Shown: positions 268 through 18,530, counted from the stretch's first letter. The stretch: 32,000 nucleotides of DNA from Promethearchaeum syntrophicum (GCF_008000775.2 NZ_CP042905.2:3720001-3752000); one strand, 5' to 3'. A program made the numbers and translations. Notes: generated by a model not told the origin, from the letters alone.

Positions 268-270
268 TGT

Positions 271-867: not shown

Positions 868-925
868 AATAACATTATTTTAGTAAAATTGTTAAAATTT
901 CGGAATTTATTCTATAATTGGAATA

Positions 926-1957
926 ATGTCAGAGAAAAAAATAATTCAATTAGGTCATGGTGGGGGAGGGATTTTACAAGGAGAATTAATTAAATTTATT
1001 ACGGAAAATATCCCTATTAAGAAAATTGGCAAGGGAATTGGAGTTGATGCTTATGATGATGGAGCTACTGTACCTTTAGATAATTACGATTATGAAATTG
1101 TAGTTACTGCCGATGGACATACAATACATCCATTATTTTTTCCGGGGGGAGATTTGGGAAAATTATCAGTTTGCGGAACAGTGAACGATTTAATTATGAT
1201 GGGAGCAAAACCACTTGCTTTAACATCAGTAGTTCTGATAGAGGAAGGTACCGCATTCGATTTTCTGGGAAAAATTATGGATTCCTTTAACAAAACCGCT
1301 GGAGAGGGTGAAATTGCAATATTAGCGGGAGATACAAAGGTAATGCCTCGCGGATCGTTGAAAGAAATTATTATTACTACTTCCGGGATTGGAATTAAAT
1401 CAAAAAAATGTCAAATATTAGATTCTAATTGCAAACCAGGAGCAAAAATCATTCTTACGGGATCTATTGGAGATCATGGAGCCGCCCTTATTGCCAGAAG
1501 AGAAGGAATTGACTTAGAAACAGAATTAAAATCAGATGTGGCAATGTTGACACCCCTTTATACAGTAATAAAAGACCAACCAGGGATATTAGCAATGAAG
1601 GATCCAACTCGTGGTGGCTTAGCCGCAGCATTAAATGAGTGGGCAGAGAAATCTAATATTAGTATTTGGGTGGAAGAGTCACAATTATTAATCAAACGAG
1701 AAGTTAAAGCAATTTCAGAAATATTAGGATTAGATCCTCTAGAAATAGCAAATGAAGGGAAAGCGATAATCTGCGTTGAATCAGAATATGCTTCTCAACT
1801 GTTAGAAAAAATCAAAAAAACATCAATAGGAAAAGAAGCCCGAATAATTGCCGAGGTTAAAGAATCAAATCCAAAGTTAGTTATAATGAAAACTCCATTA
1901 GGAAGTAAAAGAATTATTGAAAAACCTATGGGAGAATTAATTCCTCGTATTTGTTAA
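926..1957 (+). CDS. hypE: HypE hydrogenase maturation protein (carbamoyl dehydratase)
   Basis: It has the PurM-like fold signature GHGGGG near the N-terminus and the diagnostic C-terminal PRIC. Confidence 0.95.
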   Translation: MSEKKIIQLGHGGGGILQGELIKFITENIPIKKIGKGIGVDAYDDGATVPLDNYDYEIVVTADGHTIHPLFFPGGDLGKLSVCGTVNDLIMMGAKPLALTSVVLIEEGTAFDFLGKIMDSFNKTAGEGEIAILAGDTKVMPRGSLKEIIITTSGIGIKSKKCQILDSNCKPGAKIILTGSIGDHGAALIARREGIDLETELKSDVAMLTPLYTVIKDQPGILAMKDPTRGGLAAALNEWAEKSNISIWVEESQLLIKREVKAISEILGLDPLEIANEGKAIICVESEYASQLLEKIKKTSIGKEARIIAEVKESNPKLVIMKTPLGSKRIIEKPMGELIPRIC

Positions 1958-1981
1958 AATTCTCATGTAATTTTACTCTTT

Positions 1982-4408
1982 GTGATTGAAATGAAGCAAC
2001 AGAAAATAATTATCACAGGAATTGTGCAAGGTGTTGGTTTTCGACCTTTTCTTTATAATTTTCTTCGTTCATATCATTTAAAGGGAAAGATTCAAAATAC
2101 GGGTAATTTGGGGGTTTCTCTCGAATTACAATCCTCTGATGATGATTTTAATTTTCAAAATTTGATTCAAGATCTAAAAAAGAAGGTTCCAAAAATGGCA
2201 TTTATCGAAGACATCCGATTATTGCCTTTTTCAAACATTCAACAGCAAGTAAAATTTGACCAACTTCAGATAATCCCAAGCAATGAAGGGATAGGAGCCG
2301 GGCTCACTTTACCTCCCGATATTGCAATGTGTGACAAATGTTTACATGATTTTAATAACAAATCCAATTCATCTTTTTTTCACTATCCATTTATCAGTTG
2401 CGCTCAATGTGGTCCCAGATTCACAATTATGGAGTCACTTCCTTACGATCGGGAATATAGCATGATGGACGAATTTCCATTTTGTGAAGATTGTAAAAAA
2501 ATCTTTTCTAATATAGATAATCGACGTTTTCATGCCCAAACTTTTGGATGTAATTCTTGTGGTCCTCATTATTTTGATGAAATAAGTCAAAGAGAACCTA
2601 GTCAGAAAGATCTTCCCAAAATTATAGAAAAAATGGTTGAAGCGATAAAAATCGGAAAAATTATTGCACTAAAAGGAATCGGAGGTGTCAATTTAGTTTG
2701 TAGAGCTGATAAAGAACAATCAATTCAAACACTCCGAAACAGAAAAAAGGAAAGAAAATTCAAACCTTTTGCAGTTATGATGCCTAATTTAGAGACAGCA
2801 AGGAAATACTGCGAAATCCCAAAAGAATTTGAAACCATATTGACTTCTTTTCGAAGACCGATCATTTTATTTAAAAAGAAAGAAGGAACTTTACCTGAAA
2901 ATCTTTCACCAGGATTACCCAATATAGGAATAATTCTTCCGTATATGGGATTACATTACTTATTGTTCGAAAAACTTGGAAAAATTCCTTTGGTATTTAC
3001 TAGTGGGAATGTTTCTTCACTACCAATGGCCATCGAAAACACAATGATAAAAAAACATATGGTAAATTTAGCAGATGAAATATATCTTCATAATCGCAAG
3101 ATTTACCAACGTTGCGATGATTCAGTAATCCGCCCTGTGTTAAATTCTCCAATTTTAATCCGCCGTTCAAGAGGATATGTCCCAGAATATTATAAACTTC
3201 CTTTTAAAACTAATACTAAAAGTATTATTGCAACAGGTGCAGAATTGAATAGTACCGGAGCCATAAGCAGAGGAGAAAGGATTTTTCCAACACAACATAT
3301 CGGAAATGTCCGAAATCTTGATACTTATGAATTTCTTGAAAACGCAATCCTTCATATGCAGCATCTTTTAAAAATTACTGATTCAGAAATTAATGCAATA
3401 GGAAGGGATATGCACCCATTATTTCAATCTTCAAGACTTGCTTCCAAATTATTAGAAAACCTCAATAAATCTAAAAATGGTAAAGGAAAGGAGATTTCTA
3501 TTTGGTCTGTTCAACATCATCATGCTCACCTTGCTTCTCTAATGGTTGACAATAAAATGCCCATGGATAGTGAAATGATTGCAATTACTATAGATGGGGT
3601 CGGTTATGGAAGTGATAAACAACCTTGGGGGGGAGAAATATTAAGAGGAGGATATTCATCTTTTGAACGACTGGGACATTTGGAACCAATTCCTATGGTG
3701 GGAGGAGATTTGTGTGCGAAATATCCACCTCGCATGTTATTATGTACTTTAATGAATTCGGTTGGATATAAAGAAAATCCAGAGATCATTGAAGAATTAA
3801 CCAGTAAATTAAATTTAGCTCAATATTTTCCACAAGGATTTCAAGAAATAAAGTACATAACCAATAAATTCAACCAACTTGATGAAATAACTCCTCAAAA
3901 ACATCCACGTACCTCAAGTTTTGGGAGGTATTTAGATGCCATCTCTTCTTTATTTGGTGTTTCACAATTGAGAACATACCGCGGAGAACCTGCAATGAGG
4001 CTTGAAGGGTTCATTTGGAATGGCACTCCGAAAACATATTTTAATTTAGATCAATATCTCCATGGAAATGTGATATTGAGTGATCAACTTCTTTGGGATT
4101 ATACTAATCTATTATTAACAGAACCAAAATTTAAAAAGAAGAAAGAACAAAAAGACCTTGCACGATCGCTAGTGACCGATACTAGTAAATTGTTTGCCCA
4201 AATTGCAATAAGAAATTCAGAAGAGGTAGGGATTAAAGATATTGGAGTCTCGGGTGGAGTAGCTTACAATGAAATTATTATGCAAGTAATAAAATCAGAA
4301 GTTGAGAAGAGGGGATTTAGGTTTTTACAGCATAAGAATATAGCACCAGGTGATGCGGGTGTTTCTATTGGACAAATTGCCAGTATTATTGCGAGATTAA
4401 AATTGTAA
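1982..4408 (+). CDS. hypF: HypF carbamoyltransferase
   Basis: It has an N-terminal acylphosphatase motif (GIVQGVGFRPF) and two zinc-finger pairs (CDKC..CAQCGPRF and CEDC..CNSCGPHY). YrdC-like and Kae1-like regions follow, with HHHAH and a C-terminal GDAGVSIGQ. GTG at 1982 or ATG at 1991 could be the start. Confidence 0.95.
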   Translation: MIEMKQQKIIITGIVQGVGFRPFLYNFLRSYHLKGKIQNTGNLGVSLELQSSDDDFNFQNLIQDLKKKVPKMAFIEDIRLLPFSNIQQQVKFDQLQIIPSNEGIGAGLTLPPDIAMCDKCLHDFNNKSNSSFFHYPFISCAQCGPRFTIMESLPYDREYSMMDEFPFCEDCKKIFSNIDNRRFHAQTFGCNSCGPHYFDEISQREPSQKDLPKIIEKMVEAIKIGKIIALKGIGGVNLVCRADKEQSIQTLRNRKKERKFKPFAVMMPNLETARKYCEIPKEFETILTSFRRPIILFKKKEGTLPENLSPGLPNIGIILPYMGLHYLLFEKLGKIPLVFTSGNVSSLPMAIENTMIKKHMVNLADEIYLHNRKIYQRCDDSVIRPVLNSPILIRRSRGYVPEYYKLPFKTNTKSIIATGAELNSTGAISRGERIFPTQHIGNVRNLDTYEFLENAILHMQHLLKITDSEINAIGRDMHPLFQSSRLASKLLENLNKSKNGKGKEISIWSVQHHHAHLASLMVDNKMPMDSEMIAITIDGVGYGSDKQPWGGEILRGGYSSFERLGHLEPIPMVGGDLCAKYPPRMLLCTLMNSVGYKENPEIIEELTSKLNLAQYFPQGFQEIKYITNKFNQLDEITPQKHPRTSSFGRYLDAISSLFGVSQLRTYRGEPAMRLEGFIWNGTPKTYFNLDQYLHGNVILSDQLLWDYTNLLLTEPKFKKKKEQKDLARSLVTDTSKLFAQIAIRNSEEVGIKDIGVSGGVAYNEIIMQVIKSEVEKRGFRFLQHKNIAPGDAGVSIGQIASIIARLKL

Positions 4409-4455
4409 AAAAAATTTTGAATAATTATTTATAAGAATTCAACGAAATTCTTACC

Positions 4456-5364
4456 ATGGAAAAATTTACTTTTACAGATCACTTGGGAATTGAGATTCAT
4501 GCATATAAATGGGTCCCAGATTCGGGTGAATCAAAAGCCGTTGTACAAATTGCACACGGAATGGCTGAACATGCACTAAGATTTTCCCATGTAGCAGAAG
4601 CTCTCGTAAAGAGAGGATATATTGTATATGGAAATGATCATACAGGTCACGGGAAAACGGGGAAACAGAACTTGGGGCTCTTAGGACCAGAAGGTTGGAA
4701 TGGATGCGTTAAAGATCTCAAACAACTCAATGATATAATTAAAAAAGAACATCCAACATTGCCAATTTTTTATATTGGACACTCATGGGGATCATTGATG
4801 GGACAAGATTATATTCAACAATGGGGGACTGATTTTAAAGGTGTTATATTCTCAGGAACTTACGGAAGAAAAGCGAAATTGAAACTTTTATTGTCAGTGG
4901 GTAAAGCTATTATGAAAATTCAAGGTTTAAAAAGTGAAGCGTCACTGATTTATAAAATTGCTGTTGGACCTTTCAGTAAACCATTTAAACCTGTTAAAAC
5001 ACCCCATGATTGGCGAAGTAGTGATGAAAAAGTTATTCAAGATTTTATTGATGATCCATTAGCCGGATTTAAAGTAACAAATGGATGGTTTTTAGAATTT
5101 GGATTAGCAATAAAACGTATTTGGCAACAGGAAAATGAAGCAAAAATTCCAAAAAATATTGGGGTTTTGTTATTAAATGGTGGATTAGACTCAACTTGTT
5201 CAATGCCCGCGGATTTTTTACTTCTTAAAGATCGATACGAAGATTTAGGGATAAAAAATATCCAATACAAAATCTACAAAGACAGCAGACATTCAGTGTT
5301 CGATGATGTTCAGAGAAATGAAGTAATTGATGATGCTATCAACTGGTTAGATAGCCATATCTAA
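4456..5364 (+). CDS. alpha/beta-fold hydrolase (lysophospholipase / monoacylglycerol-lipase-like)
   Basis: It has the HG oxyanion motif (IAHGMAEH), the nucleophile elbow GHSWGS and a late D...H (DSRHSV). Confidence 0.75.
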   Translation: MEKFTFTDHLGIEIHAYKWVPDSGESKAVVQIAHGMAEHALRFSHVAEALVKRGYIVYGNDHTGHGKTGKQNLGLLGPEGWNGCVKDLKQLNDIIKKEHPTLPIFYIGHSWGSLMGQDYIQQWGTDFKGVIFSGTYGRKAKLKLLLSVGKAIMKIQGLKSEASLIYKIAVGPFSKPFKPVKTPHDWRSSDEKVIQDFIDDPLAGFKVTNGWFLEFGLAIKRIWQQENEAKIPKNIGVLLLNGGLDSTCSMPADFLLLKDRYEDLGIKNIQYKIYKDSRHSVFDDVQRNEVIDDAINWLDSHI

Positions 5365-5374
5365 TAGAATATTT

Positions 5375-6109
5375 TTATCCACATTTTTTCATAATTAATT
5401 CCATGTTATCAGGAATTTGGGAAATATCAGTAAGAAGTAGGTCGGGATTAACTTTTTCCATCATCTCCTTCGAATAGAATCCAGAAGTAACTCCAATTGT
5501 AATTGCACCAGCAGATTTTCCTGCAACTATATCAGATTTCATATCACCAACCATTATTATTCGATTCATTGGGATATTCCATTTTTTGCTCAGTATTTTT
5601 ATCCCTTCAGGAGAAGGTTTAATATATTTCACTTTATCTCTAGAAATTATATTATCTGAAAATTGCACTAAAAATTCCATTCTACCTTTAAATCGATCGA
5701 AAACTTCAGCATAACTACCCGTTGTATTAATTCCAAAGATAACATTATAATTTTCTGAAAGTTTAACCAGAGTATTTTCTACACCTTCTATCAAAGGAAT
5801 ATTAGAAATACCTTGACGATACATATCTTGAGTAATTCTTAAGAAATTAATCCTTTTAAACCATGGAACACCAAATTTTTTCGCAACTTTCCACATTACC
5901 TTTAACACAAGAAATTTTCCTCCACCTTTCTGACCACCAAAAACCTCAAAAAGTAATGCTGCAATTTTCTCTTGCTTCAACTGTGAAAATTCTACTCCAT
6001 AGTGATCTGCTATTTTTTGTGGAATATCATGTAAGAAGAAATCTCTGCTATCCAAAAGGGTTCCATCTAAATCAAAAATAATTCCTATTTGTTCGTGATT
6101 TTGACTCAT
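5375..6109 (-). CDS. HAD-superfamily hydrolase (phosphatase-like)
   Basis: HAD motif I is IIFDLDGTLLDS, and there is a late GDMKSD motif. The track starts the ORF at TTG 6127; ATG 6109, preceded by AGGA, is the more likely start. Confidence 0.8.
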   Translation of the reverse strand: MSQNHEQIGIIFDLDGTLLDSRDFFLHDIPQKIADHYGVEFSQLKQEKIAALLFEVFGGQKGGGKFLVLKVMWKVAKKFGVPWFKRINFLRITQDMYRQGISNIPLIEGVENTLVKLSENYNVIFGINTTGSYAEVFDRFKGRMEFLVQFSDNIISRDKVKYIKPSPEGIKILSKKWNIPMNRIIMVGDMKSDIVAGKSAGAITIGVTSGFYSKEMMEKVNPDLLLTDISQIPDNMELIMKKCG

Positions 6110-6135
6110 TTTTAATCCTTCTTGCAAATATGAGA

Positions 6136-6597
6136 TTACTGCACAATTTTGTAAACCTTACTCATTTTTACATCCCCTTTTTGATCGATTCTAAAATGAA
6201 CTACATGTTTCGAATCTTTATCCCCATGGAGATGAAAACATTGGTAAAATTTTACTAAGCTTGGAATCCCAAATTCATCTATTTCCTTCGACTCTTGAGA
6301 TTTTAATTTGTCTGGGCGAAATTCATAGGATTTATTGCATTCAGGACAAGAAAATTTTATTAGAATTCCTTTTGAAGATGGTTGGTCATTATTATACAAA
6401 TCAAACTGTTCATTATTTCTTGCTACCCTTTGAGAATCAATCCGTAATAGGTGTGCATGATTACCATGAAGAAAAACTCGGCGAATTATTGGGTTCTTAT
6501 CTGTGATTTCTTTCTTATATTCTTCCAAAAAAGGAATTTCTATCACCTTAGAATCACAAAGAAAATTTATTGTATTTTTTCTAGACATTTGAATCAC
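6136..6597 (-). CDS. hypothetical Cys/His-rich protein, apparently co-transcribed downstream of hypC
   Basis: The ORF is 153 aa and I recognise no family. It contains HGNHAH, CPEC and CFHLHG...H.VH clusters. It is 17 nt downstream of hypC on the same strand. Confidence 0.5.
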   Translation of the reverse strand: MIQMSRKNTINFLCDSKVIEIPFLEEYKKEITDKNPIIRRVFLHGNHAHLLRIDSQRVARNNEQFDLYNNDQPSSKGILIKFSCPECNKSYEFRPDKLKSQESKEIDEFGIPSLVKFYQCFHLHGDKDSKHVVHFRIDQKGDVKMSKVYKIVQ

Positions 6598-6614
6598 TCT
6601 ACTTAGGAATTTAG

Positions 6615-6857
6615 TTAAACATAATCATTTTTATCGATTAAATCCTTTTCTAAAAGGTCACGCCAAAGCTTTAAAGATTCTTTTGCTGCAACTTCATTTA
6701 TTTCTTCAATTGCATATCCCGCATGGACAATAACAAATTTTCCAACTTCAATATCTGGTAATAATGCAATCACAATACTTTTCTTCGTCCCATCAAAATC
6801 TGCAATTGCCTTGTGGCCATCTATCGATAATATCTTCGCGGGAATCGCTAAGCACAT
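6615..6857 (-). CDS. hypC: HypC/HupF hydrogenase assembly chaperone
   Basis: It has the N-terminal MCLAIP motif with the essential Cys2. The 80-aa size and VHAGYAI segment are typical of the family. Confidence 0.9.
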   Translation of the reverse strand: MCLAIPAKILSIDGHKAIADFDGTKKSIVIALLPDIEVGKFVIVHAGYAIEEINEVAAKESLKLWRDLLEKDLIDKNDYV

Positions 6858-9366: not shown

Positions 9367-10200
9367 TTATTCAAATTTTAAACCGCAATATTCGCAATAT
9401 TCATGGTTAGAAGAACTTTCCTCACCACATCTTGGACAATATCTCTTATCCGAGGGAGTATTATTAATTCTTCTTTCCACTACTACTTCTTCTCTAATAT
9501 CTTGTGAAAAAGCAGGATTAGAATTTACGTTGATATTCAAATTTTGGCGTTCGCGTCGTTCATGATATCTCGTTCTTAGATTTTCTTGGTGTCGAGTTAT
9601 GCTATCGATGATTACAAATGAAACAAGCATAATCGGTACACAAGGCCACCAAAACCAATTAGGACGACCATTACTAAAAATATCTACAAATATTAAGAAG
9701 AAACAAACTACCGCAGGATACCATAATGCATGTAATCTAGCTACGGGTTGACCTAATTCAATTTTTTTGATTCTCATATAAGCAACAAAATGTTCTCCAA
9801 CACCTATACCCATTGCAGCAACTGGCCATGCAAACCATGGATAGCCCATTCCTGTAATTACATTTAGGAGGAAAAGAAACATACTTACGGTTAATATGAC
9901 CGCAAAATGAATATAAAAACCACGATCTGATTTATAGGGATATCGATGAATAATAAAAATTACGGAACTATGAATTGATATCCCGATACCCCACGATATT
10001 AGCGGATATAAGAACCAGAAATTACCACCACTAACTCCTGTTAAAAAATTTAGTACCATTAAAAAGCAATTTACTGCAATATAAGTTATCCAATGTGCCC
10101 TTAAACCTGTTCTTGCACCTACTCGATTAAAATTGGGATTATTCCCATGAAATCTGGAATAATTCGAATTATTTTCCGAATTTCTTTGATTGTCCACCAT
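9367..10200 (-). CDS. membrane protein with three 2TM-type hairpin repeats and a C-terminal zinc ribbon
   Basis: A hydrophobic-hairpin pattern with WF..P...WGIG..H-like spacing occurs three times. The C-terminus is CPRCG...CEYCG. Confidence 0.6.
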   Translation of the reverse strand: MVDNQRNSENNSNYSRFHGNNPNFNRVGARTGLRAHWITYIAVNCFLMVLNFLTGVSGGNFWFLYPLISWGIGISIHSSVIFIIHRYPYKSDRGFYIHFAVILTVSMFLFLLNVITGMGYPWFAWPVAAMGIGVGEHFVAYMRIKKIELGQPVARLHALWYPAVVCFFLIFVDIFSNGRPNWFWWPCVPIMLVSFVIIDSITRHQENLRTRYHERRERQNLNINVNSNPAFSQDIREEVVVERRINNTPSDKRYCPRCGEESSSNHEYCEYCGLKFE

Positions 10201-10402
10201 TTATTTCAACTCAATTTTAGCTATATGATGTTAACATATAGCATCTGTTTTAATTTATTATGAGACCAATCTTTAGCAAGAAGGTATTTTTATATTGTGA
10301 AAATATTTAAGAATCGTGTCTCCCACGATATTCACTAATCTTAACAGTATTTTAAAAGTTAATTGGATGCAATTTAAAATTAAGAATAAAATAAAAAAAA
10401 AA

Positions 10403-10481
10403 GAACAATCCCCGGGCAGGGGTCTCCCATATCTCCATAGTTTTCAAGATATGATCATTGAATTCATCCTTTCACGAATGA
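10403..10481 (-). promoter_or_regulatory. 3' UTR of the selenopeptide gene with candidate SECIS-type stem-loops, ending in a T10 termination tract
   Basis: On the minus-strand RNA, UCAUAUCU/AGAUAUGG forms an 8-bp hairpin (+10427..10454). It is followed by GAGA-CCCC-UGCCC-GGGG-A (+10409..10426), then U10 (+10393..10402). This is the only GC-rich structured patch between the stop codon and the T tract. Confidence 0.3.
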
Positions 10482-10640
10482 TTATCCGCAGTCAACTTCC
10501 AACTTGCGAATGACTCGCTCAGTACCGTCTGGCTCAACAATGGTAATGTGAGCTGCACACGAGAGTCAGCAGTCATAACAGCGAATAACCATTTCCAATA
10601 GGTTCAAAATGTTATCATTTACTTCTACTACCATTTTCAT
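10482..10640 (-). CDS. vhuU: VhuU-like selenopeptide: the separately encoded C-terminal segment of the [NiFeSe]-hydrogenase large subunit, with an in-frame TGA read as Sec
   Basis: I translated it manually as MKMVVEVNDNILNLLEMVIRCYDC-TGA-LSCAAHITIVEPDGTERVIRKLEVDCG-TAA. The TGA is at 10566..10568. U-x-x-C-x-x-H sits exactly where the DPCxxCxxH motif is missing from the upstream large subunit. A GGAG lies 6 nt before the ATG, and the gene starts 10 nt after the large-subunit stop. Confidence 0.75.
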
Positions 10641-10650
10641 TTCATCTCCA

Positions 10651-11988
10651 TTATTTCACCATAGGGTCAGGTAATTTTACTTTATCTAAAATTCCTTGTT
10701 CAAATATTTGCTGGGCTGCGTGTTTCACGCTTTTTTCAATACCCGCAATATTGTGGTTTGTTGCAACTAAAAGATTCAGCTTTCGGCAAATACCTTCTGC
10801 ATCCGTGGTCATATCATATATAAGATTTCCTCTAGGAGCATCAACCATTCCGACACCGCGCCCTGCTATAGGTTTGATATCAAGAGTTTTGATATCCGTG
10901 CTTATAATTTCGGGATCTTTTAAGTACTTGATAATTAATTCAAAAGCAGCAACGGTTTCAATGATTCGAGCCCAATGATAAGCAAATGTATGATGAAAAA
11001 CTCCATTATCTTTTCCAAGAATCTTTTGAAACATTTCTTTTCGAGCAGCTTCAGCCAACGGAGTTTCCATTTCATCGCAAGCGTTTATCATTGCCAGTGA
11101 ATTAGTTCGATATATTCCATCTGGATAACCTACTGGACGGTAATAGGTGTGTGTTGCATAAGAATGATTAGGAATATGCTCACCAATTGCTTCCAAGTAA
11201 TCTGCAGGTTTGTAAACCGTTTTCTTACCTTCAGGTGAAACGAATACAATATCCCCATCATAGATTTCATGAACGAGTTTTCCATTGACTTGTTTGGCTA
11301 CACCACAGTAATATGTTGGGGTAACTGCAAGGTTAGCAACAACATCCCAATAATCAAACACGACTTTTTTAGCTAAATCGACTGTAGCTTTTACGTATTC
11401 TAATTGTTCAGGTATTTGAGCAATAAAGGAATCTCGCATTTCTGATGTTAAAGGATTTCGCATTCCCCCAACAATTCCAGCAATTGAACCAACGGATTTT
11501 CCACCAATGAAAGCGCTAATATTCTGCCCAAAATCCATCATTTTCAAAGCCATTGCTCCGACATCGGGTAAATCTTTGATAATTTGAACTACATTTCTCT
11601 TTGCAGGATCTGCAAAAGGACCATAAACAAAATCGGGTGCAGCTAATGCAAAGAAATGCAATAAATGCGAGCTATACTGTTTTGCATTCATGAATAGCTG
11701 ACGCAATTTATAAGCTGCAGTAGGAATTTCTACATTCCATGCAGCTTCTACCGATTTTGTGGCTGCAATGTGATGAGGAACAGGACAAATACCACAAATT
11801 CGATTAGTTATTCTTGGAACATGTTCAGCATATCGGCCAATACAAAGTTTCTCAAAGAAACGGGTTGACGTTATGTTAAATTGCACATCTTTTACAGTTT
11901 TACCATCTTCTGCTAAAACTAGTCTTAAACCACCGTGACCTTCTAAACGGGTTACGGGTTCAACTTCATATACTTTATCTGGAGACAT
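10651..11988 (-). CDS. vhuA: [NiFe(Se)]-hydrogenase large subunit, group-3 Mvh/Vhu type, lacking its C-terminal metal-binding segment
   Basis: It has N-terminal PVTRLEGHG and the RICGICPVPH (RxCGxCxxxH) Ni-Fe ligand motif. The ORF ends ...KLPDPMVK with no DPCxxCxxH. Confidence 0.9.
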   Translation of the reverse strand: MSPDKVYEVEPVTRLEGHGGLRLVLAEDGKTVKDVQFNITSTRFFEKLCIGRYAEHVPRITNRICGICPVPHHIAATKSVEAAWNVEIPTAAYKLRQLFMNAKQYSSHLLHFFALAAPDFVYGPFADPAKRNVVQIIKDLPDVGAMALKMMDFGQNISAFIGGKSVGSIAGIVGGMRNPLTSEMRDSFIAQIPEQLEYVKATVDLAKKVVFDYWDVVANLAVTPTYYCGVAKQVNGKLVHEIYDGDIVFVSPEGKKTVYKPADYLEAIGEHIPNHSYATHTYYRPVGYPDGIYRTNSLAMINACDEMETPLAEAARKEMFQKILGKDNGVFHHTFAYHWARIIETVAAFELIIKYLKDPEIISTDIKTLDIKPIAGRGVGMVDAPRGNLIYDMTTDAEGICRKLNLLVATNHNIAGIEKSVKHAAQQIFEQGILDKVKLPDPMVK

Positions 11989-11989
11989 T

Positions 11990-12880
11990 TTAGAGATTCA
12001 CCTTCGCTAACGCTTCTTTTCCTTTGTTTCTATGGAATTTTATTCCAAGAGTAGCAGGATCTTTACCCATGGCTAAAGCAATCAATTCCGTAATGTAAAA
12101 TGTTGGAAACTTATATACTTCACCTTCTTCAGCCATAGCTTTTAATTTCGGTTGTTCGCTATCGAATTGTTGAAAACATGAAGGGCAGTTTGCAACTAAG
12201 CAATCAGCACCAGCGCGTTTTGCACCATCAATTTTCGATTTCAACATTGTATTTGCAGTGTAAGGATCGGTATTTCTAACTACATTTCCACAACACAGGT
12301 TTTCTTCTTCATATTTGACAGCAGTAGCACCCGTAGCTTCAACCAGCTTTCTTAAATATTGAAGATTCATTACATCTTCTTCTACTTTCAAGATATGCGA
12401 TGGTCGAGCATAGTGGCATCCCGGATGCAGAGCAACTTTTAATCCTGTTAATGGATGTTTTACACTTGCTTTGATCCTTTCGATGCCTACTTCTTCATAT
12501 AACACTTTGACGAAATGAACTACGTTCGTGGTTCCCTTATATTCTTTACCCACTTTTTTGAGGATTTCGTTTACCTCATTCTTTAAATTAGGATCGTGTT
12601 TCATTTGATGGTCAGCAATAATCAAGGATTGAGCACAACCATTGCATAATGACATTATGTTCTTGTTTTCATTTTCAGCTACAACTAAATTTCTGGCAGC
12701 CAAAGTACACCACGTCTTATTATCTACAAATTTTAGACCAACTGGATTAGGACAACACGCAAATTCGGCAGAGCTATAACCAACACCAAGTTCATCAAAA
12801 ACAACTTTTGCTGATGCTTCAAGGAATGGTAATCGATTTGTCATTAAACATCCAGGAAACAATTTATATTCGGTTGTCAT
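11990..12880 (-). CDS. hdrB: heterodisulfide-reductase subunit B-like protein (two CCG domains)
   Basis: It has two Cys-rich CCG-type modules: ACCPNP...CNGC and LCCGN...CPSC. Its start overlaps the HdrC stop by 1 nt. Confidence 0.85.
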   Translation of the reverse strand: MTTEYKLFPGCLMTNRLPFLEASAKVVFDELGVGYSSAEFACCPNPVGLKFVDNKTWCTLAARNLVVAENENKNIMSLCNGCAQSLIIADHQMKHDPNLKNEVNEILKKVGKEYKGTTNVVHFVKVLYEEVGIERIKASVKHPLTGLKVALHPGCHYARPSHILKVEEDVMNLQYLRKLVEATGATAVKYEEENLCCGNVVRNTDPYTANTMLKSKIDGAKRAGADCLVANCPSCFQQFDSEQPKLKAMAEEGEVYKFPTFYITELIALAMGKDPATLGIKFHRNKGKEALAKVNL

Positions 12881-13407
12881 TATGCAGTCCCCTCCTCTTC
12901 TTTCTTTCCGAGTACTTTATTTATCCCAGTTGCTTCCATTATAATTTTGACTTCATCGACCGGAATTTTAGGTGGTAAACCAATACCCAATTTTTCACGA
13001 CGTTTATTAATTGCATCTTGAACTGGAATAGCCATTCCGTTGTCTCTAATAGTTCGAGCGGATTCCGGATAAAATTCGGGTGTTGCACCTGCAGCTACTG
13101 CAGCGTTCTTCAGATAACAAATAATATCTGTAATAGGTATTTCACTTGGACAGTACTCGTCGCATGTTTCACAAGCAGTACATCCCCACAAAGCAAATGG
13201 ATCACGTCCTACCGCTGCAAATAAGGCATCTTTGTATCCCAAAGCAGAGAATAAAACAAGATCTCGTGGATTGTATCGTGATCCCCATCGGTGGTGAACT
13301 GGGCATACCTCATTGCATTTGCCACATTGGAAACAGTAAGAGATTTTTTCTCCACCGATCATAAGGTCAAGAACATCTCTTTTCACATGTAAATCTATAT
13401 TAACCAT
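12880..13407 (-). CDS. hdrC: heterodisulfide-reductase subunit C-like 2x[4Fe-4S] ferredoxin
   Basis: The cluster motifs are CFQCGKCNEVCP and CTACETCDEYCP. There is 1 nt between the small-subunit stop and its ATG. Confidence 0.8.
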   Translation of the reverse strand: MVNIDLHVKRDVLDLMIGGEKISYCFQCGKCNEVCPVHHRWGSRYNPRDLVLFSALGYKDALFAAVGRDPFALWGCTACETCDEYCPSEIPITDIICYLKNAAVAAGATPEFYPESARTIRDNGMAIPVQDAINKRREKLGIGLPPKIPVDEVKIIMEATGINKVLGKKEEEGTA

Positions 13408-13408
13408 A

Positions 13409-14770
13409 TTAATTCTCCTCCACTTTTCTTCCTAAAGAACTTGTAGGAACACAAAACCGGGCAAATAACCCAGCAGGATCGCTGAAGAATTTTTTAATAT
13501 TCTCAGGATCATCTCTACAAATTGATGGGAAAAGACTCATCGCTTTAGATGGGAAGTCATCAACATTCAAAGCGGGACCATAACACCCTAAACATGGACT
13601 ATTTGCATTACAACATGTAGCTCCGCAACCAGCTTTTGTTATGGGTCCCATACATACGTAGCCTTGAACTAATAAACATTTTTCTTGATCTGGAAAACCT
13701 TCATAATCACGTATGTAACGAATTACTTCTTTGTCAACAACATTCCTTTCACATTGTGAGCATACAGTTTGTGCAGAATCATCATAATCGGGATTATCCT
13801 TAAGATTTCCCATAGCCGCTCCTACAATATTATTCAATATCTCAGGATATCCTTCAACAGTAAAATCAACAATTTCTTTTTCATTTACCAGTTTTGTTCT
13901 TAAATTATCTGGATCTAGTTTAACAGCGCGAATTGGATCGGCTTTTCCTACTAAATATCCCAATGGAACCGTGTTCAATGTCATGAGGAGTGTTTCCACA
14001 GTTTGTTGAACTTCCTTTCGAGATAATGGTTGTGCAGTTATTTTCTTAAACAATTTTTCCGCGTTTATGTTATGAACTTTTTTAGTTAATCCAAATTCCC
14101 CTAATACCGGATATCCCGACTCTATTCTTCCAAGTGGCACTGCAGAGGCAGTTATAGGTCCATAACATAATCTATCTTGATCAAGTAAACAAGTTTCCAA
14201 TGGACATACATCGCACATGGATTTCTCAGCATTGACTACTGTCTTTACTTGACCCAGTACAGTCGCAATTAAGCCAATAATATTACCTGTTTTTGGTGGA
14301 CACCCTGGTAAATCAACATCAATTTTTGTAACGGTGTGAAGATCCGGAATAAAATCCAAAAATTTTGAAACGTGTTGATCGGGAACAGTAGAACCCGGAT
14401 CTACAAATTCAGGGTCGGTAAACTTCCTTTCAGTAAGTTCTTCGATTGAAAATAAGTTTGCAAGTCCAGGACACCCTCCTAAAACAGCACAAGCCCCTAT
14501 CGCTACAATAACTTTGCATTTTCTCCGCATTAAATGAACATGTTCAAGATCGGCTTCAGTTCGACAAAAACCTTCAAGAAAACCAACATCTACACTATTA
14601 TCCTCGTAATTTTCCAAGTGTTTCAATTTAAAATCGACAACAGCAGGCCAATAAACGATTTCAATTTCCGGTATTACATGCAAGAGCGTTAAATGAGCAT
14701 CTAAAAGAGACTGGTGGCAACCCCAACACGAAGCTAATTGCATAAAAGCTACTTTTGCCATATTTTTCAA
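13409..14770 (-). CDS. [NiFe]-hydrogenase small subunit, group-3 (MvhG/VhuG-like), extended (453 aa)
   Basis: The proximal-cluster motifs are ASCWGC, GACAVLGGCPG and LPGCPP. The medial and distal motifs are CDVCPLETC...C and CMGPITKAGCGATCCNANSPCLGCYGP. A Cys-free segment of roughly 130 aa lies between them. Confidence 0.85.
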   Translation of the reverse strand: MKNMAKVAFMQLASCWGCHQSLLDAHLTLLHVIPEIEIVYWPAVVDFKLKHLENYEDNSVDVGFLEGFCRTEADLEHVHLMRRKCKVIVAIGACAVLGGCPGLANLFSIEELTERKFTDPEFVDPGSTVPDQHVSKFLDFIPDLHTVTKIDVDLPGCPPKTGNIIGLIATVLGQVKTVVNAEKSMCDVCPLETCLLDQDRLCYGPITASAVPLGRIESGYPVLGEFGLTKKVHNINAEKLFKKITAQPLSRKEVQQTVETLLMTLNTVPLGYLVGKADPIRAVKLDPDNLRTKLVNEKEIVDFTVEGYPEILNNIVGAAMGNLKDNPDYDDSAQTVCSQCERNVVDKEVIRYIRDYEGFPDQEKCLLVQGYVCMGPITKAGCGATCCNANSPCLGCYGPALNVDDFPSKAMSLFPSICRDDPENIKKFFSDPAGLFARFCVPTSSLGRKVEEN

Positions 14771-14964
14771 CTCTATTTTTAATTAATAAGATAAACCTAA
14801 ATATTAAATTAATTCGGAATTTTAGATTTTATCGTATTTATTAGTATGTAGTTTAAAGCTTTTAAGTTTTTAAAATTTACAAAATCATCATTTCTAGCGA
14901 TAATTTTGAATTCTATTTCGATTTTCATCGTTATTTAATGATTTAATGTTCGATATTCTTTATA

Positions 14965-15007
14965 ATATTACTAGTTTAGAAATTAGTAATATGAATCATG
15001 ATTCATA
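14965..15007. promoter_or_regulatory. candidate operator: 18-bp perfect palindrome TATGAATCATGATTCATA plus an overlapping 9-bp inverted repeat
   Basis: The palindrome at 14990..15007 is exactly self-complementary. ATATTACTA (14965..14973) and TAGTAATAT (14984..14992) are inverted copies. The site lies in the 396-bp gap between dsrH and the hydrogenase operon. Confidence 0.3.
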
Positions 15008-15166
15008 ATCTCCGAAAGCCTACAGTTTTTCCAATTCAATTTATATATATTTTAAAATGATTCAAAAACTCTAAATTAAATCCAATTCTGAATGATAATG
15101 GGTTATTGATTCATTTAAGGGAGTTTATAAAAGAATAAGATATAAAAAAAAATATGAATTGGAAAT

Positions 15167-15466
15167 TTAAAAATTTAATATTGAATCATTTTCAAAAATC
15201 AAATCTACTACTTCATCTGTTGTAACTAATTTAATTTTATCAGAAATGAATTTTACTAATCCCCTTTTCATAATATCCTCTTTACATGCAATAACTATCT
15301 TATTTTGATTAATTGCTTGTGAAACGGTATTATTGAATTTATTTGCAAAATACACTGCATTTTGAAGTAGAAGAATTGTTACTTCGTCTTCAATAGAATG
15401 TTCCATCGCAGTTTCTACTCCAGTGATATCTTGACTGGAAATAAAATATAACACTTTTTTTGCCAT
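15167..15466 (-). CDS. DsrH/TusB-family sulfur-relay protein
   Basis: It is 99 aa with an ILLLQNAVYFA segment typical of DsrH/TusB. It is the third of three consecutive small DsrE-fold genes. Confidence 0.7.
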   Translation of the reverse strand: MAKKVLYFISSQDITGVETAMEHSIEDEVTILLLQNAVYFANKFNNTVSQAINQNKIVIACKEDIMKRGLVKFISDKIKLVTTDEVVDLIFENDSILNF

Positions 15467-15479
15467 TTTTTCATGCCTC

Positions 15480-15824
15480 CTAAAATGGGATGGTTACGGA
15501 TGATTCCGCAATCATTTTTACTATATCACAATGATCTACAATTTTCACATGATCAACTAAATCCTCTTTGACTAATCCCCTCTCATCAATGGATTTCTTA
15601 TCAACAAAGATATCTAAATCAATACTTTTCAAGAAATTCATATGTACTAAATACATAGTTTTATCTACATCCTTAGTAAAGGTGTATACTGCATCATTAA
15701 TGGCAATGGTAATCGGATCAAAATCGGCACTAACTGCTACTGCCATTCGTAACCCCTCAACAGGATAAAGTGTTCCGTGTGGGGGTTGTCGCAAAAGAAT
15801 AACTACATTTTTTTCTTCAGTCAT
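15480..15824 (-). CDS. DsrF/TusC-family sulfur-relay protein
   Basis: It is 114 aa with a PPHGTLYPVEGLRMAVAV segment typical of DsrF/TusC. It lies between the DsrE-like and DsrH-like genes. Confidence 0.7.
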   Translation of the reverse strand: MTEEKNVVILLRQPPHGTLYPVEGLRMAVAVSADFDPITIAINDAVYTFTKDVDKTMYLVHMNFLKSIDLDIFVDKKSIDERGLVKEDLVDHVKIVDHCDIVKMIAESSVTIPF

Positions 15825-15835
15825 TTTTCATCACC

Positions 15836-16198
15836 TTAACAGATTACAATAAGTCTATCAGTTTCGTCAATAATTCTAGCAAGATCAGGTGTTCCAGCTT
15901 TTTTAATATCTCCGCTTTCCTTTGTGATACAATTTTTCATTGTACCTCTTACTAAAAGACAAATATTACAGAGTCTGATTGTCGCCCCTTTACTTAATAT
16001 TTCTTTAAAACCTTCTTCAATATTCATAATACCTTCTATTTTTTTTTGTTTTTCTAAGACCGCATTCACTGCATCCATATAACAAAAAATGCGGACACTG
16101 TGTCCTTTATCTAGTGCAGCGTTTGCGATTTTGCATACAGATTCACTAGCCTGTTTTTGATAAGGTCCATCAAAGAAAAGGATTCCTAATTTGGGCAT
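15836..16198 (-). CDS. DsrE/TusD-family sulfurtransferase
   Basis: It is 120 aa with an N-terminal GILFFDGPY. A conserved Cys context, LCNICLLVRG, sits near the position of the TusD/DsrE active-site Cys. Confidence 0.75.
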   Translation of the reverse strand: MPKLGILFFDGPYQKQASESVCKIANAALDKGHSVRIFCYMDAVNAVLEKQKKIEGIMNIEEGFKEILSKGATIRLCNICLLVRGTMKNCITKESGDIKKAGTPDLARIIDETDRLIVIC

Positions 16199-16224
16199 TT
16201 TTTAATTTCAACTCCCATCCTAAG

Positions 16225-17265
16225 TTAATCGTCTTTTTCTCTGAATAGTAAAAATGCCAAAAACCAACACCCTAATACTATTCCAACTGATGAAACTATA
16301 CTACCAACAGATAACTGAGGGATCCCGCTTAAAAGATTTCCAACATTACAACCTGAGGCAACAACTGCTCCAAAACCCATTATAAATCCACCTAAAAATT
16401 GTAACAATATTGTTTTACCTTCCTTTGGAGTTCTAAGCTTAAATTCACCAGCAATCAATGAAGCAATCAATGCACCAACAATAACGCCCAATACTAACCA
16501 TGAAATCCAGGATAATGCAGCTACATCTCCAGTAACTAAATATTTTAAGTTTCCTATCCAACCCGCAGTAATTCCTAAAGGATAATTTCTACCGGCTGCA
16601 GCAGATAAAGGCCATGCAATAATATTTATAATACCAATTAAATAGCCAGTTGAATACCAAGACCATCCTTTCTTGAATATATTTTCTCCTAAATTACTGA
16701 AATCAAAGAATTTCTCTCTCTTTGCTTTAATTTCTTTAAATACCCAGAAGTAGAAAGTTACTACAAGACCAATTACACCAATAATTAAACAGAATAATGG
16801 TGTTAAATCTCCAAAAACAGTGATTCCACCAGTAGATACTGATTGTAAAGCTGTAGTGACTCCTGAAAGAGCACCAGATTTTGTGGTAAACGCCCCAATT
16901 GCTAACCCAACTAAGGCTACCAATGATCCCATCATACCTTCTCCAACTCGATAGGTCGTTCCACTAGCACATCCTGCAGCAAGAACCATTCCTAATCCAA
17001 AAACAAATCCGCCGATAATAGACCCATATGCGAATAATGGTTTTGGATTCCAGGTAACCCATCCTGCAAGACCCATAATTCCAAATCCGGCCATGCATGT
17101 TAATAATGCAAGAGCTACAGATTTTATTAGTTTATATTCCTTTAATAAGATAATATCTCTAAAAGCGGAGTTCATACAAAATCGACCGCGTTGTAGGATT
17201 ATACCAAATAACATCCCAATCAAAAGTCCTGATATTAAGACTGCATAAAATTCTGCCATTTTCAT
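16225..17265 (-). CDS. YeeE/YedE-family sulfur (thiosulfate) or selenium transporter
   Basis: It is a polytopic membrane protein with two GRFCMNS/ASGC-type half-repeats (RGRFCMNSAF, AAGCASG, ASGCNVG). I chose the ATG at 17265, preceded by AAGGAG, over the track start at 17301, which overlaps tusA. Confidence 0.8.
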   Translation of the reverse strand: MKMAEFYAVLISGLLIGMLFGIILQRGRFCMNSAFRDIILLKEYKLIKSVALALLTCMAGFGIMGLAGWVTWNPKPLFAYGSIIGGFVFGLGMVLAAGCASGTTYRVGEGMMGSLVALVGLAIGAFTTKSGALSGVTTALQSVSTGGITVFGDLTPLFCLIIGVIGLVVTFYFWVFKEIKAKREKFFDFSNLGENIFKKGWSWYSTGYLIGIINIIAWPLSAAAGRNYPLGITAGWIGNLKYLVTGDVAALSWISWLVLGVIVGALIASLIAGEFKLRTPKEGKTILLQFLGGFIMGFGAVVASGCNVGNLLSGIPQLSVGSIVSSVGIVLGCWFLAFLLFREKDD

Positions 17266-17273
17266 TTTGCTCC

Positions 17274-17507
17274 TTATTTTATACGGACCAAGATTTGCCA
17301 TGAAGATTTATCTTTTTTCTCTACTGAGATTACTTCATGTCCGAGTTTTTTCATTGTTTCAGGAATTCTTTCAGCTGAAAGCGGATAATCAATTAAAATT
17401 TCTAAAATATTTCCTGAATTCATCTTCTTAACTTTCCTTTTAGATTTTACATCGGGATATGGACATACTTCACCCATGCAATCCAGTGTTTCTGTAATTT
17501 CTACCAT
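17274..17507 (-). CDS. tusA: TusA-family sulfur carrier
   Basis: It is 77 aa with DCMGEVCPYP, which matches the D.xG..CP.P active-site motif. Confidence 0.85.
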   Translation of the reverse strand: MVEITETLDCMGEVCPYPDVKSKRKVKKMNSGNILEILIDYPLSAERIPETMKKLGHEVISVEKKDKSSWQILVRIK

Positions 17508-17817
17508 TTTTTTTTAACCCAATTTTTTCATATAATTTATAAATAATTATCGATAAATCGACAATTGTAATTTATCTTACTTTCTATTAAAATAATTAGC
17601 TATTTAATTATCGAATTTCGTAAAAATGAGAATAATCACATACAAAACTTTTAATATAATATATTGAATATTTGAATTCTAATTTTATATTATTGATTAT
17701 GATCATTGAAAGTAAAAACTATGACAAATTCTTACATCTAAGATCAAAAAAATTTGATGTTTTGAAACTATAATTATTAGATCTAAATTTGCACTAACAA
17801 ATTAATAATAGAGAATC

Positions 17818-18234
17818 ATGGAAAATGATAAGGAATATATTCCCAGAAAAAAGGATTTCAAGTCGAGGAACTTTCAACCTATAAAAAAACGTCGATTGAA
17901 TGAGGATTTTGAAAAAAATAATGATGAATCTGGACCAAGACTGGAAAATATCCTTGAAAATGGTAAGATAAATGAAACTCAGATAAAAGAAGAAGAAATT
18001 CCAGAACTTACTTTTGAAAACTTTCCAATTGAAGCAGCAGTGCATTCAGAACCACCAGATATGATGGACATTCTACTTCAAGCTGCCGTACATCGAGAAC
18101 CAGAGAATATTCCTATGCCAAGTTCAATGCCATTACTAAAGAAGTTTAAAAAAAACATAAGAAGGTTGATATCTTTAAATGTGAATGTTCTGGAGTTATA
18201 TCACCAAATATCATTGAATATGGAGAATCTGTGA
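17818..18234 (+). CDS. hypothetical acidic low-complexity ORF, possibly non-functional and linked to the Sir2 remnant
   Basis: I recognise no motif. It has an internal short duplication (AAVHSEPPD / AAVHREPEN). It ends where the Sir2-like frame takes over. Confidence 0.3.
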   Translation: MENDKEYIPRKKDFKSRNFQPIKKRRLNEDFEKNNDESGPRLENILENGKINETQIKEEEIPELTFENFPIEAAVHSEPPDMMDILLQAAVHREPENIPMPSSMPLLKKFKKNIRRLISLNVNVLELYHQISLNMENL

Positions 18235-18530
18235 GAAATTATGATATTTGTGAAGATAAAGCTCGAAAAACTATTGTTATGTTAGTTATGGGTACTTCTA
18301 TTCGAGTTACTCCTGCTAGTGACCTTGTTGATATTGTTGAAAAGCAAGGTGGAAAAGTTATATTATTTACAAGATCCGATACACCCAAAGACGATTTAGC
18401 TTCTCTTCACATTCGCGGGGATCTTTCAGATATTCTTCTAATGATTCCAAAAGAATTGAAGAAATATCTTCAAACCCAAGATAATATACCGAAATCAGTA
18501 AGAAAATTAATTAGGAAATATAAAATATGA
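18150..18530 (+). pseudogene. Sir2-family (sirtuin) deacylase, C-terminal half only
   Basis: The frame is open from 18150: KCECSGVISPNIIEYGES...VMGTSIRVTPASDLV...GGKVILFTRSDTP.DD.A...IRGD. This matches the sirtuin zinc-ribbon and C-terminal Rossmann half (CxxCGG.L.P.VV.FGE / GTSL.V.PA). No GAGxS, QNID or catalytic-His region is found upstream. Confidence 0.5.

Follow-up and report, generated by a model that had tools for sequence, protein, structure and literature searches.

We analysed a window of 32,000 nt, the whole stretch of DNA considered here, from the genome of the cultured Asgard archaeon Promethearchaeum syntrophicum MK-D1 (GCF_008000775.2 NZ_CP042905.2:3720001-3752000), in which a five-gene module (TusA, YeeE, DsrE, DsrF and DsrH) lies upstream of an operon encoding a [NiFe]-hydrogenase together with HdrC and HdrB. 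Judged from homology and gene neighbourhood, the module may feed carrier-bound sulfur to H2-dependent reduction by the neighbouring hydrogenase-HdrBC, a reading that we consider evenly balanced between right and wrong. The gene identities, the invariant cysteines, the cassette structure of the module, a recurrent neighbourhood and a cis-motif shared in Lokiarchaeia were observed. The open question addressed is the substrate of Hdr-type enzymes in organisms without coenzyme M and coenzyme B. An earlier note on this DNA had made its argument conditional on a non-methanogenic host, and MK-D1 is a non-methanogen.

In the proposed mechanism, the YeeE/TsuA-family channel would pass thiosulfate or a related sulfane-sulfur species across the membrane along three invariant cysteines, and the YeeD/TsuB-type TusA would accept the sulfur on Cys15 and hand it as a persulfide to Cys77 of DsrE in a DsrEFH-like complex. 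Cys80 might then resolve the Cys77 persulfide, releasing H2S and leaving a Cys77-Cys80 disulfide or a protein-bound persulfide, and the selenocysteine (Sec)-containing group-3c-type hydrogenase could re-reduce that species with electrons from H2 through HdrC and the two-CCG-domain HdrB. Overall, thiosulfate or sulfane sulfur would be reduced with H2 in the cytoplasm, yielding sulfide and sulfite, with a possible role in sulfur assimilation or as an electron sink. The substrate, the order of transfer past the step from TusA to DsrE, what Cys80 does and the HdrBC coupling are the parts that we infer. The thiosulfate/sulfide plus sulfite couple lies at about -400 mV, and with so low a potential H2 is a sensible donor.

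The earlier note had described five co-oriented genes in the order TusA-YeeE-DsrE-DsrF-DsrH with spacers of 8 to 26 nt, and the open reading frames (ORFs) and Pfam matches confirmed this layout (Table 1; coordinates are positions in the window, and the module and hydrogenase genes are all on the minus strand). The five ORFs were recovered on that strand at unchanged coordinates, with spacers of 8, 26, 11 and 13 nt. The 8-nt spacer requires the YeeE ATG at 17265; the longest YeeE ORF begins at 17301, which gives a 28-nt overlap with TusA. The two cysteine motifs singled out in that note, CPxP in TusA (CPYP, Cys15) and LCNIC in DsrE (Cys77 and Cys80), are present and invariant, in 49/49 and 57/57 homologues, respectively. 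The homology supports a sulfur import and relay unit, whose closest solved relatives are StYeeE/StYeeD and T. maritima TM0983. An Rfam scan of positions 10000-18500 with a permissive threshold resulted in one chance snoRNA-like match (E = 0.79) and in no riboswitch or known RNA in the spacers.

The first two genes resemble a thiosulfate-type pair. The best PDB match of TusA was T. maritima TM0983 (E = 5e-26), and S. thermophila YeeD/TsuB was also matched (E = 1.3e-20), with much weaker matches to E. coli YedF (1.5e-7) and E. coli TusA (4e-5). Among the NCBIfam models, TusA scored best on YedF (57.8 bits, cut-off 79) and reached 33.6 on YeeD (cut-off 147.5), both below the cut-off. YeeE matched StYeeE, known from a Spirochaeta thermophila crystal structure (6LEO), over its full length (E = 2.8e-61, residues 11-344). 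Its motifs GRFC, GCASG and GCNVG align with the three StYeeE channel cysteine motifs, and 54/54 homologues retain each of Cys30, Cys99 and Cys306. On NCBIfam, YeeE scored 292 and 198 on the TsuA models (cut-offs 400 and 645) and 118 and 61 on the selenium-type YedE models (cut-offs 350 and 200), all below the cut-off.

With the YeeE(TsuA)-YeeD(TsuB) thiosulfate uptake system of S. thermophila and E. coli (6LEO, 8J4C), the pair therefore has in common the full-length homology, the three channel cysteines and an adjacent CPxP partner. It differs in scoring below the NCBIfam TsuA and YeeD cut-offs, its transport specificity being predicted by homology, and in the DsrEFH-like set of three genes that always comes next, often with a hydrogenase-Hdr cluster after it. 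Thiosulfate imported by StYeeE/StYeeD is broken down on the CPxP cysteine; a reductant is needed, and the in-cell acceptors were left unidentified in that study (PMC11073785). The T. maritima yeeE/dsrE/tusA cluster was induced 42.6-fold by thiosulfate (PMC9431562).

In DsrE, Cys39 is conserved in 56/57 homologues in addition to the invariant pair, and the CxxCxxxRG motif is invariant also in the nearest bacterial relatives, from Mesotoga, Desulfacyla and Anaerolineae. The AlphaFold2 monomer model (predicted local distance difference test, pLDDT, 90) has the DsrE fold, with the Cys77/Cys80 motif at the junction of strand 73-77 and helix 78-84. Compared with solved folds, the model matched A. 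vinosum DsrE (2HY5_A, 26% identity, template modelling (TM) score 0.77) and E. coli YchN (1JX7, TM 0.82), and TusD (2D1P_A, 16% identity) was more distant. Cys77 aligns with the CxxC of YchN and is probably equivalent to A. vinosum Cys78, as judged from the fold match and not from a residue-level alignment. The Tus-type models were all matched below their cut-offs: DsrE scored 31.2 and 26 bits on the TusD models (cut-offs 89 and 92), DsrF 42.2 on TusC (cut-off 94) and DsrH 48.8 on TusB (cut-off 49.2). In the PDB, DsrF matched A. vinosum DsrF (E = 1.2e-6), and the matches of DsrH, to TusB of E. coli and TM0979 of T. maritima, were weak. DsrF has no conserved cysteine, and the sole cysteine of DsrH (Cys61) is conserved in 31/53 homologues.

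The module thus contains the same three consecutive DsrE, DsrF and DsrH families as DsrEFH of Allochromatium vinosum and TusBCD of E. coli, with the DsrE fold and with a conserved cysteine only in the active-site region of the E subunit. It differs from both in its identity of only 16-26%, in a CxxC as in YchN in place of a single cysteine, in a DsrH lacking the cysteine, in the absence of any DsrC/TusE seen near the module and in scores under the equivalog cut-offs. The DsrE clade of Asgard archaea and Bathyarchaeia is tight and separate, with only 6 representatives at E<1e-30 among 1.84 billion proteins in a profile search; a separate word-indexed protein search reached only Asgard and Bathyarchaeia homologues, and the bacterial relatives came from the profile search. 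Within a yeeE-tusA-dsrEFH cluster, persulfide transfer from TusA to DsrE needs the DsrE active-site cysteine and runs both ways in vitro (PMC13293266). A selenoprotein review describes UxxC in DsrE-like proteins and GUxSG in YeeE proteins (PMC13188914), forms that fit redox-active roles for the DsrE and YeeE cysteines.

In the forward test, we scanned one genome per GTDB species with the DsrE alignment, which resulted in 60 loci from metagenome-assembled genomes (MAGs) labelled Promethearchaeota/Lokiarchaeia, Hodarchaeota, Heimdallarchaeota, Thorarchaeota, one Odinarchaeota and Bathyarchaeia. The five-gene order was kept wherever the contig permits, except in the degenerate copies L047 and L061. 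In L047 (6206-7128, Loki_b31), which lies beside MvhG, TusA and YeeE are gone and DsrE is truncated at its 5' end, with DsrF, DsrH and hypEDF kept. A group-3c-type hydrogenase (MvhG/VhuA) with HdrCB or HdrABC was found within 6.5 kb of the module in 29 of the 60 loci; a hydrogenase subunit lies within 1.5 kb in 27 of them and at 3.0 and 6.5 kb in the other two. The linked loci span Lokiarchaeia, Hod/Heimdall-type archaea and Bathyarchaeia, in at least five arrangements with or without HdrA-MvhD. Many loci of Lokiarchaeia have the order HdrB<HdrC<U<A<G< >module> hypE>D>F (arrangement 1), and module>G>A>U>HdrC>HdrB was also found (arrangement 2). Promethearchaeum has module>G>HdrC>HdrB>A>U (arrangement 3); arrangement 4 is divergent with a 3-kb spacer; Hod-type loci are divergent and combine an HdrA-MvhD fusion with a large subunit of the Cys type (arrangement 5); and Bathyarchaeia have a tandem order with a Cys-type subunit and HdrA-MvhD (arrangement 6). 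Clustering of YeeE resolved eight module clades, seven of them with readable context, and linkage was present in five of these seven, each with its own arrangement.

In Mesotoga, Desulfacyla and Bathyarchaeia, the neighbours of the same cassette are other redox enzymes that act on disulfides or sulfur. Mesotoga has the same five-gene order together with a pyridine-nucleotide disulfide oxidoreductase, and the genus depends on sulfur as electron acceptor. In Mesotoga locus L147 (10073-11999), the cassette is followed by a helix-turn-helix (HTH)-TusA fusion, possibly a sulfur-sensing regulator, and by the oxidoreductase. The nearest bacterial DsrE relative, in Desulfacyla, lies in an Hdr-like/GcvH/lipoate-ligase cluster, and in Bathyarchaeia a molybdopterin oxidoreductase stands beside the module, with SufBD/SufC nearby in one locus. 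The yeeE-tusA-dsrE(FH) clusters of bacteria (T. maritima TM0979-TM0983, Mesotoga and the YTD/DsrEFH type II clusters of Desulfobacterota) hold the same five genes, in the same order in Mesotoga, and the T. maritima cluster includes both the best solved TusA match, TM0983, and the DsrH match, TM0979. Partners of the bacterial clusters are a pyridine-nucleotide disulfide reductase or else DsrAB/DsrC and sHdr-like enzymes, whereas the partner here is hydrogenase-HdrBC. The module agrees with the synteny definition of YTD (yeeE, tusA, a gene resembling dsrE plus two small genes; PMC13293266), and the same source gives one YTD/type II subtype only 7% archaeal members, linked to dsrMK/qmoAB.

Some loci have a DGC cluster (DUF166, two DGC-domain proteins, a DGC-GcvH fusion, a small ferredoxin and a 128-aa protein without known family) as the neighbour. 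It adjoins a paralogous module in Lokiarchaeia (YeeE clade 7; L017, L019, L030 and L040) and also the Bathyarchaeia module (L053/L065, L052 and L054). This DGC/GcvH cluster may be an alternative redox partner, recalling the lipoate-binding proteins of sHdr systems. A hypE-like gene beside many modules was considered as selD and rejected; its product is HypE, with PRIC at the end and 61% identity to the HypE of the window.

In Lokiarchaeia, the two units also share a sequence motif. The palindrome at 14992-15005 (TGAATCATGATTCA) is unique in the window and belongs to the motif TGAAT-N4-ATTCA, with conserved arms and a variable spacer. We counted 47 copies in the 1.47 Mb examined, and 36 of them fall in the 61 kb (4%) within 450 nt upstream of MvhG or TusA, counts that cover related, non-independent loci. 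The motif precedes TusA in 19/21 clade-1 modules, usually 37-52 nt ahead of the start, and MvhG in 17-18/33 cluster-1/4 loci, usually 165-245 nt ahead of it; for other hydrogenase paralogues, the count of loci with an upstream copy was 0/54. The motif still precedes TusA in L007, L011, L026, L027 and L037, which have no hydrogenase beside the module, and MvhG in L141 and L143, which have no module beside the hydrogenase. Control palindromes of the same base composition were rare, and all but one were absent from the MvhG/TusA upstream windows. No motif precedes TusA in module clades 2, 4, 5 and 7. Besides window positions 14992-15005, carriers are loci L007-L039, L141 and L143, and a few further copies lie beside hypE or hypC. 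The enrichment at both units suggests a common hydrogenase/sulfur-relay regulon in Lokiarchaeia, of which the motif may be the operator. No HTH family was found when a regulator gene was sought in two fully annotated Lokiarchaeial loci.

Several results weigh against the module as the supplier of the hydrogenase, beginning with the border between the two units. The earlier note had placed the module directly upstream of the hydrogenase operon; it is co-oriented and upstream, but a gap of 405 nt (15166-14762) separates the DsrH stop from the MvhG start. Oligo-T runs are an archaeal termination signal, and the T9 run in this gap, 15 nt past the DsrH stop, may end the module transcript. The hydrogenase retains an upstream region of its own, in which the ~240 nt nearest to MvhG show conservation across five sequences, among them the module-bearing Promethearchaeum MAGs L002 and L003 and the module-less metagenome contigs L123 and L067. 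The module and the hydrogenase operon would therefore form two transcription units here, with read-through possible. By blastn, L123 matches the window to 17799, on the orf138 side, and resumes at 14980, the 2.8 kb between them being replaced by ~120 nt; L067 lacks the cassette at this exact site, with a breakpoint near 15003. The two contigs come from different metagenomes, carry an MvhG 84-88% identical to that of the window, and keep the homologues of orf92, orf99 and orf138, and MvhG, as flanking genes; the module-less junctions are L123 2718-2836 and L067 619-878, against window 14981-17798. No target-site duplication longer than 8 nt was found at the cassette borders. Given this clean presence or absence among close relatives, the module behaves as a ~2.8-kb cassette. 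A 39-codon ORF in the spacer was taken as spurious, since the region is conserved in relatives at the DNA level, with indels. A scan for sigma-70 promoters and intrinsic terminators was discarded, as it gave sites no commoner than in shuffled sequence and is inapplicable to archaea.

The reverse test points the same way. We scanned metagenomes with the long small subunit, which resulted in 80 loci, 46 of them with at least 1.2 kb upstream, and the module was present at only one of these 46 informative loci (L137). Distance clustering placed most matches in the large paralogous cluster 6, which is never module-linked and accounts in part for the low count; the module-linked small subunits belong only to cluster 1, the clade of the window, and cluster 4, the Lokiarchaeial G-A-U-HdrCB type. 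Even among the cluster-4 loci found through the small subunit, the module was present in 1/4 informative ones, and in L143 and L145 hypE directly faces MvhG with no module between. In the forward direction, 10 fully informative loci (at least 2.5 kb on both sides) have no hydrogenase, some of them with unrelated neighbours, and the other partners of the module are the DGC/GcvH cluster, the molybdopterin oxidoreductase and the pyridine-nucleotide disulfide reductase. Beside some hydrogenase-less modules stands hypE-hypD-hypF alone; beyond hypEDF and DGC/GcvH, no steady alternative neighbour was found in these loci, the others being an aldolase, peptidases and URO-D. Adjacency is thus frequent when seen from the side of the module (29/60) and rare from that of the hydrogenase (1/46): the association is asymmetric, paralogue-specific and not obligate. 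In this window, moreover, the motif occurs only upstream of MvhG and not upstream of TusA (17508-17798), and no DsrC/TusE-type acceptor or lipoate-binding protein was seen. Finally, Imachi et al. assign the MK-D1 hydrogenase to H2 production, not uptake. The idea, put forward in the earlier note, that an H2-HdrBC enzyme acts on a persulfide carried by TusA/DsrE accordingly has the recurrent linkage and the shared motif in its favour, and the separate units, the cassette indel and the reverse count against it.

The main rival explanation is that of an independent sulfur-acquisition cassette for biosynthesis (of cysteine, Fe-S clusters or thio-cofactors), located in a hydrogenase/hyp island by co-regulation or hitch-hiking. 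One possibility is that such a cassette, without providing the substrate of HdrBC, delivers the sulfur that goes into the many Fe-S clusters of the hydrogenase-Hdr enzyme. We regard it as somewhat unlikely. The module has its own upstream region and oligo-T end, is cleanly missing from close relatives and is commonly absent beside the hydrogenase operon, all of which fit an independent unit, as do its frequent position between hydrogenase and hypE-hypD-hypF or beside hyp genes only, the one Bathyarchaeia locus with SufBD/SufC and the assimilatory role of YeeE/YeeD in thiosulfate uptake in E. coli (PMC11073785). However, assimilatory uptake needs only YeeE and YeeD, and the DsrEFH set with its invariant CxxC is extra; neighbours of the disulfide-reductase type (HdrBC, HdrABC, Pyr_redox_2 and sHdr-like) recur across unrelated lineages and arrangements, and the linkage is limited to particular hydrogenase paralogues. 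A TusA-TusBCD relay for tRNA 2-thiouridine is scarcely credible, even though homologues are auto-annotated as 'tRNA 2-thiouridine synthesizing protein D' and the TusB, TusC and TusD models are weakly matched. All three scores stay under the cut-offs, the fold is nearer DsrE and YchN than TusD, and in every case the genes are fused to one for a membrane transporter. Archaea make 2-thiouridine at position 34 (s2U34) through an Ncs6/Urm1-type route instead. The earlier note had looked to TusBCD membership and to co-occurrence with mnmA-type genes as signs of tRNA thiolation; the family cut-offs speak against the former, and neither MnmA nor the TusE/DsrC family was found in any Pfam-annotated neighbourhood of the module loci.

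The reaction could also run in reverse, with HdrBC oxidising sulfide or sulfane sulfur on TusA/DsrE, the hydrogenase evolving H2 at the very low H2 pressure of syntrophy, and YeeE exporting or exchanging the oxidised sulfur, which we consider improbable. MK-D1 evolves H2 with its only hydrogenase, TusA/DsrE proteins feed sHdr in sulfur oxidisers (PMC11094781), the transfer between TusA and DsrE is bidirectional in vitro, and both the Desulfacyla cluster and the GcvH-like neighbours of the paralogous Loki/Bathy module would suit this direction. Nevertheless, the window has no lipoate-binding protein, HdrA or second HdrBC pair, and the closest characterised YeeE proteins are importers. Sulfide is oxidised to persulfide at about -270 mV and proton reduction has a standard potential of -414 mV, and by these values the reverse reaction is favourable only at very low H2. 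As for selenium, which the earlier note had offered as the alternative, a YedE/YedF-like pair and DsrE proteins would import and traffic it for the adjacent Sec hydrogenase. This is very unlikely. VhuU carries the Sec TGA in the window, 17/17 Lokiarchaeial hydrogenase loci scored have it at that position, YedF is the best (sub-threshold) NCBIfam match of TusA, and selenium starvation of M. maripaludis induces yedE (+5.3 log2) and tusA/tusD (+4.5), an induction that still speaks for selenium (PMC11097638). The reading is weakened because six loci, two of the Hod/Heimdall type and four from Bathyarchaeia, keep the module next to hydrogenase and HdrA genes that are Cys-type and uninterrupted, the hydrogenases with TGC or TGT. 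It is weakened further by the thiosulfate type of the pair, YeeE scoring far higher on TsuA than on the selenium YedE models and TusA being far nearer StYeeD and TM0983 than E. coli YedF, as well as by the thiosulfate response of the homologous T. maritima cluster. In addition, no clear selenium phenotype resulted when yedE was deleted in M. maripaludis (PMC11097638).

The neighbouring operon has the order G-HdrC-HdrB-A-U, with no HdrA or MvhD. Imachi et al. 2020 list its genes, in their supplement, as DSAG12_03951-03954, the NiFe hydrogenase of the organism, with the small subunit as DSAG12_03954, and they report that the MK-D1 genome encodes only one hydrogenase. The MK-D1 paper names the enzyme MvhADG-HdrABC, although the operon lacks HdrA and MvhD; without HdrA, electron bifurcation is not expected for the enzyme as encoded here. 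On the CoB-CoM models, HdrB scored 272 (cut-off 345) and HdrC 83 (cut-off 160), both below. The small subunit is ~160 aa longer than VhuG and has a second GPxTxxGCGxxCxxxNxPCxGCYG iron-sulfur motif; the cysteines of the first copy are lost in the Promethearchaeum clade and kept in other Lokiarchaeia. The C-terminal part of the large subunit is fused, in a Cys version, in the Hod-type and Bathyarchaeia proteins. As in MvhADG-HdrABC of methanogens, a group-3c-type hydrogenase is encoded with HdrB and HdrC; the differences are the missing HdrA and MvhD, which the Hod and Bathyarchaeia versions have, and a large subunit that is split and contains Sec. Metagenome contig L136 (1244-8931) has a tandem-duplicated HdrC-HdrB-VhuA-VhuU unit around one MvhG gene. 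Maturation genes in the window are the HypD C-terminus (7-267), an endopeptidase-like gene (271-867, minus strand), HypE (926-1957), HypF (1982-4408) and HypC (6615-6857, minus strand), and this hyp set at 7-6857 makes the window part of a hydrogenase island. Apart from it, an ORF of 1062 aa (28705-31893, minus strand) with ~ten near-identical repeats of ~95 aa (…YTDTGLTNGQIYYYQISA.N.EGEGPLCDEVS…) and a C-terminal hydrophobic anchor probably encodes a repetitive surface protein.

Table 1. Features of the sulfur module, the spacer and the hydrogenase operon in the window.
Feature	Coordinates	Strand	Remarks
Module upstream (putative promoter) region	17508..17798	-	5' end of the 2.8-kb cassette missing in L123 and L067
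TusA, YeeD/TsuB type, 77 aa	17274..17507	-	CPYP, catalytic Cys15; Pfam PF01206, 75.9 bits
YeeE/TsuA-family membrane channel, 346 aa from ATG 17265	16225..17265	-	PF04143 Sulf_transp, 274 bits, positions 1-310/310
DsrE-like, 120 aa	15836..16198	-	Cys77-x-x-Cys80-x3-Arg-Gly; PF02635, 63 bits
DsrF/TusC-like, 114 aa	15480..15824	-	Without conserved Cys; PF02635, 33 bits
DsrH/TusB-like, 99 aa	15167..15466	-	Without conserved Cys; PF04077, 42 bits
T9 run, like an archaeal oligo-T terminator	15144..15152	-	15 nt past the DsrH stop; conserved in L002 and L003
Conserved hydrogenase upstream region	14762..15003	-	Holds palindromes 14992-15005 (TGAATCATGATTCA) and 14965-14992
MvhG/VhuG-like [NiFe]-hydrogenase small subunit, 450 aa	13409..14761	-	Pfam Oxidored_q6; NCBIfam VhuG 217 bits
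HdrC (13407-12880) and HdrB (12880-11990)	11990..13407	-	Pfam Fer4_8; CCG, two stretches in HdrB
VhuA large subunit	11988-10651	-	NCBIfam VhuA 441 bits
VhuU, separate 52-codon ORF	10640-10482	-	In-frame Sec TGA 10568-10566, YDC-U-LSCAAH

The core of the proposal that hydrogenase-HdrBC reduces sulfur carried by the module is not new, as it is already in print as a hypothesis: a 2025 preprint on another Asgard archaeon, Nerearchaeum marumarumayae (bioRxiv 10.1101/2025.07.22.663070), proposed a reduction of TusA/DsrE persulfides driven by H2 through a group 3c hydrogenase/Hdr. That scheme has a group-3c-type hydrogenase with HdrB/HdrC as here, and its text mentions no gene cluster or operon. A 2024 paper speculates on Hdr and DsrE in Bathyarchaeia, and the literature on YTD and DsrEFH type II covers the bacterial cassette (including PMC13293266). 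In open-access text, we found no paper on the Asgard-Bathyarchaeia neighbourhood, the cassette indel, the CxxC signature or the palindrome. The sulfur-oxidising sHdr-LbpA system, with its TusA/DsrE3 sulfur-transferase cascade, likewise couples an HdrB/HdrC-type CCG enzyme genomically to TusA, a DsrE-family protein and a YeeE-like importer (PMC11094781; SoxT, PMC13293266). Compared with shdrC1B1AHC2B2 and its lipoate-binding protein, the window has one HdrC, one HdrB, no sHdrA and no GcvH-like gene, and the electron partner is a [NiFeSe] hydrogenase. Since the organism is a strict anaerobe, reduction is the probable direction, unlike the oxidation by sHdr. A bolder form of the proposal, in which the Cys77/Cys80 DsrE-TusA couple is the physiological 'heterodisulfide' of the HdrBC hydrogenases of Asgard archaea and Bathyarchaeia, co-controlled by a regulator of TGAAT-N4-ATTCA, appears distinctly doubtful.

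If the proposal is wrong, the cassette would be an ordinary unit for thiosulfate uptake and sulfur trafficking. If it is true, the adjacent protein-bound sulfur carrier would be a concrete, assayable substrate, and the missing acceptor and reductant for YeeD-bound thiosulfate, left open by the YeeE/YeeD study, would be supplied. It would also link H2 and sulfur cycling in anoxic sediments. The enzyme concerned is the only hydrogenase reported for MK-D1 and is central to syntrophy models of eukaryogenesis; should the 'heterodisulfide' form hold, there would be a mechanistic tie between inorganic sulfur and the way in which the closest cultured relatives of eukaryotes metabolise hydrogen.

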